Assembly: GCF_947568905.1 (NCBI RefSeq)
Contig: NC_079173.1
Span: forward strand, 20,832,001-20,896,000
Source: Ostrea edulis
Lineage: Eukaryota
Direction: 5' to 3'
DNA: 64,000 nt
In this document: positions 38,901-44,900 of the stretch, one piece after another
Layout: the number at the start of each line of letters is the position of its first letter
How positions within the stretch are numbered: position 1 is the first letter of the stretch
Notes under the pieces: model-generated
What the model was told of the DNA's origin: nothing
The model's database searches: none
Seen by the model: the letters and a program-made list of their open reading frames with translations, nothing else
Program-made: the position numbers and the translations under genes

Positions 38901-41900
38901 GTACGTTGGAGTTCAAAGTAAACGGTGTGTACAAAAAACTCGAAAAACTTGAAAGTGTTGAAACTAAAGTAGCGAGCATCGGCACAATTATCTCAAATTT
39001 TGAATCGGAACTATCCAACATAAAATCCAGTATAAACTCAAGTCTTCAACAAACAAAGGACATGATTACAACGCTCGGTGAAAGGACAGATGGAGTAGAG
39101 TACCAATGTAACGAAATGGACGACCGAATAGCACACCTAGAGTCAGAAAATCAAGCACTGAAATGGGAAATCATTGACGTAAAAGTGCGCTCTATGAGGG
39201 ACAATTTAATCTTCTCAAATATTCCTGAGAGAGTCGACGAAACCCCTAATGTGACTGAGAACATTTTACGAGAATTTCTAGAAAAAGAACTGAAAATGGA
39301 TACGGCTGATGTGAGCAACATTAAGTTTGACAGAGTACATAGAATGATGGGACGTAACAAACCCCGAGCAATAGTGGCGAAGTTTAACAACTTTAAACAA
39401 AGGCAAGACGTCAAATTCAGATCCAGAGAACTGAAAGGTACAAACTTTTATATAAATGAACAATTTCCACCAGAAATCAACGAACAAAGATGACAACTAA
39501 TTCACATTGCGAAGGAGAAACAACGACAAGGACACAGGACACGTTTAGTGTACAATAAACTGTACATTGATGGCGTTCCATACAAACCACCTACCAACCC
39601 ACGGATCCAGGAACCGATGAGATAGGAAATTGCGGGGGTCGGACATTCATTGCGTATAGTCGCATGGAATGTAAACAGAAATTTAGAGCAAAAGATATGT
39701 GACAGTGACTTTTGCACAGTCATATCTGACTACGATGTAATATTTTTATCAGAATGCTGGATTCAACTTGGAACAGCTCTAAAGTGCGATTGGTTAAACG
39801 ACGAATTTGAATACAAATGTTTTCCTAGACTGAAGGGTAAAGGCGGTGGCCTTGTGCTGTTATACAGAAAAACACTTCGTAAGTTTGTATCAATTGTTAA
39901 ATGTGTTGAAGACACACTCATATGGTTAAGAGTAGAACAAAGAGATCATCCCGATATTTATATCTGTTTTGCGTATATACCTCATGATCATAACGTTTAC
40001 TACACAAAGTATAATTGCGATTTATTTGATTGCATCTTAAATGATATGTCAATTTTTACACAGAACGGCACTGTTGCTGTTGCCGGTGACTTAAACAGTA
40101 GAGTTAGTAATTTACCTGATTATATTGTAGAAGACTCTCTTGCTATACCTATTCATGATATGCTGTCAAATGTTTTTGATTATAACACCGATTCGGTCAT
40201 GCCACATCGAGTATCAGAAGATATGATGGTTAATAGGTTTGGCAGAAAGTTTTTAGAATTATGTAAATCTACTGGTTTAAGACTTTGTAATGGCAGAACA
40301 CCAGGTGATGAAAATGGTCAGTTAACTTTTTACAATCACTTGGGTACAAGTGTTATAGATTACATTTTAGTAGAAAATGCGTACTTTAACAATGTCACTA
40401 AGCTTAACGTCTGTGAGTTTAACGAATGGTCAGATCACGCACCAGTAGAATTTACTTTGAAATGTATGAATGCTAGCTTTTCCAATAATAGTGATGTAAT
40501 CACGAGTGGTCCAAATACGACACGGAAGTTCAGATGGGACGACGAGCACGTGGAACAAATGGAACGTGACCTCAATGACAAAGTCAGTGATCTGTATAAT
40601 ATTATCGACTTAATACAATCATCTACCCTAACACTGGATCGTGGTATTGAGCAGTTTAATTCTATATTAAATGATGTTTTTCAACCTTGTTCTAGAAATG
40701 TAACATATGTTGTAAAAAAAAATTCACCAAATAAGAAAAGTTCTACCAGCAAGGATAAACCTTGGTTTGACGAAAAATGTAAGCACTTGTACAACACTTA
40801 TCGTCATTTTATGTACATCTTTAATTCTGAGCGTAGCCCGGAAAACAGATGTAATCTGGTTGAAGCTAAAGGTGAATACAAACGTTATGAACGACAGGTC
40901 AGACGTAAGTATTTAAGATCAGAGGGGAACCGACTTAGTCTGTTACGTAGGAATAATCCTAGGCAATTTTACAAAGCGTTTAAGAATTCACGGTCTCCAC
41001 CTACAGAGTTGTCTTTGAATAATTTTTTTGTGCATTTCAAGTTTGTCTGTAACAATGATGGAGATAACAATAATACAGATGTGGACCGAGCTCAAAGTTG
41101 CATTTTCGAGGAGCTAGATGTTCCAATATCATGTGATGAAGTTTGTAATGTATTAAAGAAAACGAAAGCTGCTAAATCACCGGGCATTGATAACTTGTTA
41201 AATGAATACTTTTGTAAATTTCGAGTTATTTTTACTCCATCATGTCCATTGTTGTCACATCTATTCAATATTATCTTTAATCGTGGCACATTTCCAACAT
41301 GTTGGTCTGAGGGAATTATTTTCCCATCTTTTAAGAAAGGAAATGCTAACGACACTAATAGCTATAGAGGCATAACTCTGGTGAGTTGTTTGGCAAAAAT
41401 ATTTACTTCTGTTTTAAATGATAGGTTGTTAAAATGGTCTTACGGGAATAATTCTGTGTCAGATGCTCAGTTTGGTTTCAAACCAGGTTTTGGCACTACA
41501 GACGCTATATTTGCATTACAAAGTGTCATTAGTAGAACGTTATCACGCAAAAATAAGTTATTTTGCTGTTTTGTTGATTATCAAAAGGCTTTCGATAATG
41601 TCAACCGAAACAAGTTATTTTTAAAATTATCACGCTGTGGCATCACTGGTAAATTACTTACAATCATCAAATCACTATATAGTAACTTAAAATCCTGTGT
41701 TAGATTTCAATCTGAATTATCGAACTTCTTCTCATGTACAAACGGATTAATGCAAGGTGAGGGGTTGTCCCCCTTTTTGTTCTCTCTCTATGTGAATGAT
41801 TTTGAGAATGCATTTATTAATAACTTATGTGATGGGATTGACTTTAAAGATATATCACTGTTTTTGCTAATGTACGCTGATGATACTGTACTTTTTTCTG

Positions 41901-44900
41901 AATCAGCCACAGGATTACAAAACATGTTAAATACTTTATCAGTTTATTGTAACGAATGGGACCTAAAAGTTAACATTCAAAAAACAAAAGTTCTTGTCTT
42001 TCGTAACGGAGGGAAAATAAATGCCGCCAGCAAATGGTTTTACAATGGTAGCGAACTAGAAGTTGTTGACAGCTTTAATTATCTTGGTCTTGCTTTAAAT
42101 TTTAATGGTAAATTTTTAAAGTCTCAGTGTATTATCGCCGAGCAGGGTAGAAAATGTATGTACCATATTCTTCGAATTTGTGATAATCTGTCACTGAATA
42201 TTGTAACAAAACTTTATTTATTTGATACTTATGTTTCAAGTGTTTTGAATTATGGTAGTGAAATTTGGGGTTTTAACCCAGGTAACGATGTTGAAAAGGT
42301 ACATGTGGACTTTTGTAAGCGAATTTTACATGTAAAGAAGTGCACTCCAAATTATATGGTTTACGGGGAACTTGGTCGTGTGCCAATGTATAATTTACGT
42401 ATGATAAAAATTATCAAATATTGGTTGAAAGTTATCAAAACCGACAATTGTATCCTTCAATCTATATATGATGACATGTTGATTTGCAATCACAAGAACT
42501 GTAATTGGCGCTGCCAAGTTAAGCATTTATTATTATCGAAAGGATTTAGTGATGTATGGTTTAACCACTATGTTAATAATGAAGTTTTATTTCTAGAATG
42601 TCTCAAACAGCGTTTAACTGACAACTTCATGCAGTCACGAGATGAATTTTTTGATAATTCACCCAAATGTATTCTGTATAGACACCTTATTGATAATGTT
42701 ACCATTCAATTTTACTTGACAAAATCTATTCCGGAAAATCTTATTAATCTTTTAGCAAAATTTAGATTGTCTGCTCACCAGCTTAGAATTGAACAAGGTA
42801 GATATAATGGCACAGCAAGACAAGATCGATTGTGTGAATTTTGTAATTTGAACGAAGTTGAGGACGAATATCATTTTATTTTAATATGTCCTTTGTACAA
42901 AAACCTCAGATCTGCATATATGAAAAAATATTATTGGTCGCATGCTTCTATGTTTAAACTGGTACAATTGATGTCAATTCATAATAGAAAACAAATCTGT
43001 AATCTGGGTAAATTTTTAAAATGTGCTTTACTATTACGATCTAGCCAAACTATCGTCTAATGTATATGCTGGTTTTTGTTGGTTTCTTTTTTATGTAAAC
43101 TTGTCTTATAACTCTCTTCATGTATGTCCATCCTCTAATATTCACTCCACTTTTCATACTGTATACATCTTATTTGTTTATATTTTGTAATTGAATATGT
43201 ATTATGCTGATGAGCCGTAAGGCTTAAAGCCAATAAACAATACAATACATGTAATGGAGATTTGTTAAAAAAATTGTAGCGATCGAACAATGCATTACTG
43301 AGATAATGATGATAGGGAAAAAAGAAGAATAAATAGAATTTCAATACAAATGAAAGACTTATTGATAAGAAACAATTAAAATCACTATAAGATCTTCCCT
43401 TGGGAACATTATCATAAACTGTCATCTGAAGAAATAAAGTAAACAGCAACTCTAAAACTCAGTTTGATAACAGAATCATACAATAAGACATGCAGGTATT
43501 ACATTGGGCCGTCATTAAAAATATTTTTGTGTGATATACTCCGACCCACATTTTTCAAGGTGGGTCGGTAGATAGGTTTTTTTTTTTTTGGAACGTCATG
43601 AAATTTTCTGATATTTTCTTTCATTAAAATAAGGAGAATTTCCTATTTTTCAAGGGAACCCAACAACAAAACAAAAAAATCTAAATTTTTTTTTTTACAT
43701 TGCTGAAAAAAATGATCGGGTAGGAGCAAATTTGACGGGTCGGTTGGAGTACACCAAACAAATCAAGTTTTGTTTTTGGCCTTGGCAGTTGATAATGTAA
43801 GTGATATCTACAATGTCAACCACTTGTATACATTGTTAGGTGCATTCACAACTGTTAAATGTAATAGGGATTACATTTGCGGTGCACCCGACATGCACAT
43901 GTAGGTAATGAAATCCGAATATATTAGCTGGCAGGGATTATATTAGTCAGTGTTACAAGGCATGTATAAGTCATGTAAAAGTATTTAGGTACACAGGTGA
44001 ATAATAAAGTAATTGGTAAAGAGAAATATTTCTCTATTTGATGTTTAAAATGATAAAATGTGTCAGAATTAAAAATTGTGGAATTTCAGTATTGCTTGTG
44101 GAAATAAAATGCACAAGTAATGGCGATTGGAAAAATGATTTTGATCTCTAATTGTTGGGAAGAGACCGAACCATGAACCAATAGGCAAATACTGCTGAAA
44201 GATGGTGCAATGCGACAATGATGTGCTACACCAATCGGCAAAATTAGTAAAATGTGCAAACGCATGACTTCTACTTCATTATGTAAATGCTTTGGTGATA
44301 TTGAGACTCTGTTTATCAGTAACCTTTCTCAAGGGTAGAAGGGATCCGAAGCATGATTTAAAATGTGCTAAATTACAAAACATGCAGCCAAAAAAACCCC
44401 CCAAAAAACCCCAAACTTTAATCGCCAAAATCTTCCTACCGGTCACAAGGGCTGATGGTTCGACACGTCCCCATTACATATACAAAGAATGTCTCTCTTT
44501 TTATTAAGTTTTCTTATTGAACGCGATGTCCAGGCCCCAGGATCATGAAACATCTTAAGCTTAAGTCAAAATCTGAATATTGTGATGAAATGATTGAGAA
44601 GTCGATCATTCCAAAATAAAATTGCTATTCAATATTGTTTCATTGAATTTCTGGTGTATGCAAATTAAGAGTTTCATTTCAAAAGTAATGAATGTTTTAC
44701 ATGTGATTGAAATTTTGACTTAAGTCTGAGTTTGTTACATGATCCTGGGGCCAGATCAAAGAATTTTTGGCCCACCATTAAGTCTTTTATTACAAACAGG
44801 AGTAACACAGTCAAACAAGACGTTATTTATCCGAAGTTGATGCTACGGTTTGTGATCAAAGCAGAGTTAGTGAAATTGTCAATGAATTCTTGGTCAATGT

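Follow-up and report, generated by a model that had tools for sequence, protein, structure and literature searches.

The ORF1 and ORF2 of a likely RTE-X retrotransposon in Ostrea edulis lie in one frame, separated by a single conserved UAG, and a complement to the bases past this stop is found about 3.5 kb away near the tail, so that the enzyme is likely made by read-through on full-length RNAs. These sequence facts point to ribosomes that read through the stop, to a helix that forms between the junction and the 3' end, and to a stimulatory effect of this helix. Read-through of the UAG-G to give an ORF1-ORF2 fusion, stimulated by the predicted long-range helix, is thus considered the probable mechanism. 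The type of recoding is known from viruses, and its proposed occurrence in an RTE-X-like LINE has strong support from comparison among relatives. How LINEs translate ORF2 is described as an open question in reviews (PMC3894237), and the clade-wide signal, with its UAG-G, purine run and distal partner and with covariants that occur naturally among 19 families, allows one answer to be tested.

The element and its two reading frames

The window is the 64,000-nucleotide stretch of contig NC_079173.1 that was analysed. The features of the element and of its ORF1-ORF2 junction are as follows.

38455..43249, + strand: full-length non-LTR retrotransposon copy, likely RTE-X, of 4,795 bp, with ends common to full-length copies
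38594..39625, + strand: ORF1, which in intact copies has 343 codons ahead of the TAG and in sister copies is uninterrupted as far as this stop
39491..39499, + strand: TGA-CAACTA, a copy-specific CGA>TGA nonsense change by copy comparison and no recoding site
39623..39625, + strand: ORF1 stop UAG, candidate read-through codon, kept in 27/27 copies
39626..39633, + strand: 8-nt spacer that starts with G-purine, conserved in family representatives
39626..43060, + strand: ORF2, 1144 codons in the window copy, open and in the ORF1 frame
39650..39652, + strand: Leu/Met polymorphic codon at beta strand 1 of the endonuclease (of 26 copies, 16 have TTG and 10 ATG)
43212..43249, + strand: 3' end with a small stem-loop, AATAAA and short CAATA repeats, read from the sequence and common to copies
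38024..38403, no strand: 21-bp host tandem array that adjoins the insertion and lies outside the element; other copies have unrelated flanks

The predicted ORF1 protein consists of a coiled coil, an RRM like that of L1 ORF1p and a C-terminal domain, and a profile built from 17 ORF1 sequences matches structures of human L1 ORF1p (E 4.5e-6). ORF2 encodes an APE endonuclease (~39662-40381; Pfam PF03372, aa 13-252), a reverse transcriptase (RT, ~41339-42094; Pfam PF00078, aa 572-823) and a Cys/His motif in its C-terminal part. The element and its relatives are likely RTE-X LINEs, as judged from the APE and RT domains in ORF2 (Pfam), the short-repeat 3' tail of CAATA repeats and a length close to the ~4.9 kb of this group (mean 4,937 bp; Martelossi et al. 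2023, PMC10294476). All three published RT rows that share the RT heptapeptide QGEGLSP are classed as RTE-X and look close by eye. The RTE-X rows C.farreri_34_LINE, M.yessoensis_40_LINE and M.yessoensis_48_LINE resemble the window element in having an ORF2 with APE and RT behind ORF1; the available main text of the same paper contains neither 'readthrough' nor 'read-through' and does not describe the junction, and the accessible part of its supplement contains none of five words taken from the junction or the tail (PMC10294476). An Rfam search of the element gave no match, and the 3' ends of other families resemble that of the window element.

A genome search with the junction gave 41 matches, of which 30 were retrieved. 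Of 20 extended copies, four have both frames fully open, with 343 and 1141 codons, and the ORF2 of the window copy shows small in-frame length differences at 40703-40714 and 41236-41244 relative to one of the intact copies (L032). The window copy is ~99% identical to young sister copies and is inactive in cis, since the stop at 39491 interrupts its ORF1. Target-site specificity was considered and rejected, as the flanks of 20 copies are unrelated. Internally deleted, non-coding derivatives also occur which keep the junction and the 3' end (L042, L043, L045, L047, L065, L067, L070 and L107). Two of them, L042 and L043, lie on two chromosomes with the same deletion (window-equivalent 40637-42797) and were therefore copied in trans.

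The ATG at 38594, the TGA at 39491, the TAG at 39623 and codon 39650 all fall in one frame, and the TAG is separated from codon 39650 by eight sense codons, which confirms the coordinates and the shared frame given in an earlier sequence-only reading of this DNA. It had been allowed there that one or both stops could be mutations of a single copy, to be settled by a consensus over genomic copies, and the comparison divides the two: the TAG is fixed (27/27), but TGA-CAACTA is not, since the 25 copies that cover site 39491 have CGA in 22 cases, TGA in two and a deletion in one. The literal TGA followed by CAACTA had been matched to the CARYYA read-through context. This assignment is refuted, and UGA-CAACUA is decay, a mutation of the window copy, because CGA prevails among the copies, C is present at full depth in 4/4 sequencing runs and the conserved ORF1 domain continues behind the site, where 43 codons complete the C-terminal domain and CAACTA encodes Gln-Leu. 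The change is one of four of the CpG type among 26 private substitutions of the window copy. A Type I (TMV) signal, stop-CARYYA, was looked for in functional copies and is lacking at this site.

Past the TAG, an in-frame ATG first occurs at 40046, the 133rd codon counted from 39650, behind the WN and FLSE motifs of the endonuclease. The earlier description of ORF2 as AUG-less up to this codon applies to the window copy but not to the 10 of 26 copies with ATG at 39650, where the frame begins M-R-I-V-A-W-N. An in-frame AUG ahead of WNV, which had been named as evidence against the read-through reading, is thus found in part of the family, while the outgroups and the youngest clade have TTG. A copy tree with site 39650 masked shows TTG in two outgroup copies, ATG in copies of middle age and again TTG in the youngest clade, which requires a minimum of two changes (from TTG to ATG, then back to TTG); several inner supports of this tree are weak. 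The youngest TTG clade holds the window copy and all intact copies, and the four intact full-length copies all combine TAG with TTG at 39650. Shared ORF2 changes inside this clade comprise six non-synonymous and six synonymous ones (dN/dS 0.25, p=0.02), compared with a dN/dS of 0.85 for private ORF2 changes. From the tree placement and the dN/dS of 0.25 it follows that AUG-less copies multiplied under selection on their own ORF2. As relatives have Leu, Ile, Val or Phe at the position of codon 39650, Met looks like a tolerated swap, which could serve re-initiation in the copies that carry it.

Conservation of the junction among related elements

Outside the family of the window element, 150 ORF1 matches were found in the genome and 60 loci of other families were retrieved. 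The TAG is present at the junction in 46 of these 60 loci, which form 19 families at a clustering threshold of 85% (17 at 70%). The loci left out have a sense codon at the site (L052, L057), a junction that is deleted or unclear (L078, L085), an ambiguous structure or no ORF2 (L059, L093, L108, L109), or are fusions of ORF1 to UPF0029 without ORF2 (six loci, L095-L100). The sense codons are variants in single copies, TGG in L052, a decayed relative, and TAC in L057. Identity to the window element is mostly 35-52% in ORF1 and 22-45% in the ORF2 N-termini of other families. Across families the ORF1 tails range from 10 to 96 aa and the linkers from 11 to 46 codons, and the frame is constant; the in-frame junction is read directly in 17 of 19 representatives, by comparing copies in F081 and by other analyses in F075 and F086.

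Conservation extends past the stop and concerns nucleotides, not residues. Among family representatives, +1 is G in 17/18 and +2 a purine in 18/18, followed by a second conserved block in which +10 is G in 17/18, +12 and +13 are purines in 18/18 and +14 is a purine in 17/18. An AUG ahead of the first endonuclease motif is almost never present in the in-frame UAG-G families.

The same junction is found in metagenome contigs, where 80 loci were examined and 44 have an endonuclease behind ORF1. In 28 of the 44 the two frames are in frame over one stop, which is TAG-G in 26 (24 clusters), TAG-A in one and TGA-G in one, and a Met ahead of the first endonuclease motif occurs in two of the 24 clusters. 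The remaining 16 comprise three loci in which a frameshift precedes a TAG-G that is still in frame with ORF2, four L1/Tx1-like loci and nine that are decayed or unclear. The four L1/Tx1-like loci share the ORF1 type and have TAA or TGA stops, spacers of 350-500 nt, an ORF2 out of frame with ORF1 and a Met ahead of the motif; in the endonuclease tree the two Met-type rows form a branch separate from every TAG-type row (support 100/100; midpoint root). In the metagenome families the purine run is less strongly kept (+10 G in 17/24). UAG-A with a long linker was seen in one metagenome family (L135, L119, L186) and an in-frame UGA-G in L177. A search of viral contigs gave no relative. Nine of 120 longer ORF1 relatives have an APE match behind ORF1; these are mostly eukaryotic gene models, and such single-ORF relatives were not used because gene models may splice round the stop.

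The frame, the identity of the stop and the +1 G are thus kept over ~44 family-level clusters while lengths vary by whole codons, which gives strong comparative support to read-through at the TAG, with the reservation that family counts are not independent because the families are related. Of the earlier proposal of ORF1-ORF2 read-through, the part that concerns the TAG gains strong comparative support, whereas the TGA is refuted and the local hairpin is probably no stimulator.

The six ORF1-UPF0029 loci (for example L096:922-2061, + strand) encode an ORF1-like protein of coiled coil, RRM and C-terminal domain fused to an IMPACT-type UPF0029 domain (PF01205), with no ORF2 start behind it. The same pairing is seen in several database proteins, and these loci may be an element that consists of ORF1 alone, or a family of domesticated genes.

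Predicted pairing between the junction and the 3' end

Three further features concern RNA structure.

39634..39646, + strand: proximal pairing element, the conserved purine run +10..+14 and the next bases, with a predicted helix to the 3' UTR
43124..43135, + strand: distal pairing element, a pyrimidine-rich complement of 39634-39646 in the 3' UTR, ~3,480 nt away
39643..39672, + strand: local hairpin of 10 bp (6+4) with a 2x2 loop (ViennaRNA), starting at +18 and family-specific

The two pairing elements are predicted to form a helix of 12 bp with one bulge. At -16.2 kcal/mol (-18.6 with an extension) the window helix is the best of 106 sites in the element, and the distal element shows no difference among the 18 aligned family copies that extend that far. 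By inspection, T at 39650 contributes one more pair to the extension of this helix, and A (the ATG allele) one more to the local hairpin that competes with it.

The pairing was tested across the genome families, as the metagenome loci stop short of the 3' UTR. A first, unconstrained scan with 24-nt duplexes was noisy, yet placed the best partner of the window element in the 3' UTR, and a first, looser swap test (280 nt) gave p=0.018. In the final test the head comprised +7..+21 and the purine core had to pair, settings which were chosen after the first scans had been seen. With these, 5 of 13 families have the best site in the whole element within its last 200 nt (p=5e-4; 7/13 and 4/13 for two alternative heads), and in these 13 families the cognate tail pairs better than swapped ones (p=1e-4). 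Six held-out families, of which the tails of F065 and F094 had already been inspected before the formal test, gave ranks of 1, 1, 2, 4, 1 and 1 under the same settings (4/6 at rank 1, p=4e-4; swap p=0.003). For all 19 families the cognate pairing averages -13.7 kcal/mol vs -10.4 kcal/mol for non-cognate tails (permutation p ~5e-6); rank 1 is reached in the last 200 nt in 9/19 and a tail site is among the top three in 14/19. Control 15-mer heads taken 60, 120 and 240 nt downstream reach rank 1 in 0, 2 and 3 of 19 families. Three families (F076, F086, F101) score no better than with non-cognate tails, and F216 stands outside the test since its 3' end is cut.

The predicted helix is short and rich in G-U pairs, and starts at +8 to +10 in most families. 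Covariation is seen in the families with U at +11 (L203, L204, L196), which have A at the partner site. A comparison of ORF2 ends (L058, L089, L103, L105, L075, L065) places the distal partner in the last ORF2 codons, with Cys-Pro-Pro-type ends, in families with the xSLN motif and in the 3' UTR in xSWN families.

The local hairpin had been put forward as a stimulator, with 11 bp at 39644-39671. It is present, 18 nt past the TAG, but ViennaRNA gives 10 bp at 39643-39672. Its z-score is -4.5 for a hand-cut piece of 36 nt and -2.4 to -2.9 at 78-100 nt. A conserved local fold was searched for in all 19 families, and z<-1.64 is reached in 3, 2 and 3 of them at 60, 90 and 120 nt, compared with 0-3/19 for control offsets; the 2/19 at 90 nt that fold better than shuffles thus equal the control windows. 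Local pairing of +10..+14 is marginal, the same level being reached by 3/30 and 1/20 controls. The folding method is blind to pseudoknots such as the compact local one of gammaretroviruses, and local stability is not raised. The local hairpin is therefore probably not the stimulator. In a two-strand fold only its top 4 bp are kept, and the long-range helix displaces the lower stem.

Known recoding systems and the route to ORF2

The Type III read-through motif consists of UAG-G and a structure after a spacer of 8-9 nt, which is also the spacing of the MuLV and alphavirus stimulators (PMC3159437). The LINE junction has UAG-G with the polymerase in frame, and the structure at this distance would be the predicted long-range helix from +8..+10, with its family-specific complementarity. 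Gammaretrovirus gag-pol is alike in its RNA-binding protein gene, UAG-G, purine-rich 8-nt spacer, structure and in-frame RT; MuLV uses a compact local pseudoknot, whereas the window LINE, a non-LTR element, has a predicted long-range helix (PMC3159437). The signal is most like that of tombusviruses, in which read-through into the RdRp depends on base pairing across 3.5 kb with the 3' end of the RNA, a contact that has been proposed to act as quality control against truncated genomes and to favour cis-preference (PMC3234231). Both have UAG followed by G, the polymerase in frame and a pairing over ~3.5 kb to the RNA 3' end, in the LINE as a prediction. The tombusvirus proximal partner lies in a large local stem-loop and its effect has been measured, whereas its counterpart in the LINE is a linear run from +9, predicted to pair and without a conserved stem-loop (PMC3234231).

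Reviews of LINE ORF2 translation name re-initiation, IRES and 2A, and in the parts available not read-through (PMC3894237, PMC5972666, PMC5009743, PMC3708506). Among openly accessible papers, a literature search returned LINE read-through only in PMC5405496 and nothing for RTE-X. In that source one sentence proposes read-through for Paramecium tetraurelia non-LTR Group 3 from consensus frames; this is a separate ciliate clade, and the available text gives no signal, distal element or test (PMC5405496). L1, SART1 and the 2A StopGo LINEs are alike in making little ORF2p and much ORF1p, and the window ORF1 is itself L1-ORF1p-like, but they use an AUG or a 2A peptide and yield separate proteins (PMC5972666, PMC3894237, PMC3708506). 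An AUG at or near the ORF1 stop and ahead of the endonuclease, as in L1 and SART1, is absent from 4/4 intact copies and 22/24 metagenome clusters and present in 10/26 family copies. In the window LINE the functional copies are AUG-less and the frame is conserved, and therefore a fusion is predicted.

Under the favoured reading, most ribosomes would terminate at the UAG and release ORF1p. The 3' tract would pair with +9..+21 and place a helix at the mRNA entry channel while the UAG is decoded, and a minority of ribosomes would insert an amino acid and continue to a fusion of ~1,485 aa. The 3' end in question is the one that reverse transcription needs, and through the helix the enzyme may be made only from RNAs in which this end is intact, with ORF1p kept in large excess. 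The balance tips slightly towards a wider form of this proposal, in which a whole clade of animal LINEs would make its RT in the manner of gag-pol, with a 3.5-kb helix that switches UAG read-through. Only full-length RNA would then make enzyme, and this enzyme would be tethered from the start to ORF1p beside the 3' end on which it has to prime, which would account for stoichiometry, quality control and cis-preference.

In the first of the alternatives, which is unlikely, ribosomes would terminate at the UAG and re-initiate without an AUG a short way downstream, in the manner of L1 and SART1; the helix would hold the ribosome or small subunit near the ORF2 start and ORF2p would be a separate protein. 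L1 ORF2 translation was reportedly found to be AUG-independent by Alisch in 2006. Termination-re-initiation is the route described for L1 and for SART1, the latter with a downstream structure (PMC5972666, PMC3894237), and the toggling of codon 39650 between TTG and ATG, with ATG in 10/26 copies, permits ordinary re-initiation in part of the family. Such a route has no obvious need for a fixed frame, UAG and +1 G, yet all three persist across linkers of 11-102 codons, in 20 families of the genome and 24 clusters of the metagenomes, and the AUG-bearing L1/Tx1-like relatives show none of these constraints.

Next, and likewise improbable, is read-through driven by the UAG-G context and the purine run alone, with the distal complement serving RNP folding, delivery of ORF2p to the 3' end or priming. 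It would fit the three of 19 families that keep UAG-G without a good helix score, and the internally deleted, non-coding derivatives that keep both ends. Against it, the helix starts at +8 to +10, which is the spacing of known read-through stimulators (PMC3159437).

Alteration of the RNA, either by a splice acceptor at TAG/G that removes the stop or by ADAR editing of UAG to UIG (Trp), is very unlikely. TAG/G does fit the YAG/G acceptor, UAG is a favoured ADAR triplet and the decayed relative L052 has TGG. The site, however, is never CAG and lacks a pyrimidine tract (mean pyrimidine fraction 0.46, at least 0.7 in 1/19 families), the A of the UAG is predicted to be unpaired in most families, and altered RNAs would be copied back, yet TGG is found in 0/27 copies and no copy has upstream ORF1 sequence fused to +1. 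A version in which both stops, UGA-CAACUA as well as UAG, are leaky and the local hairpin stimulates them is hardly credible, as the window copy has both stops and the hairpin but 22/25 copies and 4/4 runs have CGA, and local folding elsewhere is no stronger than in control windows.

If read-through stimulated by the helix is the correct reading, long-range-pairing read-through, a plant-virus device in the literature found, extends to animal retrotransposons, and ORF2-only annotations of abundant bivalve elements begin at the wrong Met. The element group is large and common in bivalves.

Elsewhere in the window, open frames of 524 codons (17631-19205, + strand) and 195 codons (26746-27333, - strand) without a Pfam match are probably host exons. 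Long minisatellite arrays at 6003-8507, 25888-26556 and 33990-35285 (units of 18, 24, 16 and 15/27 bp) yield open frames derived from their repeats.
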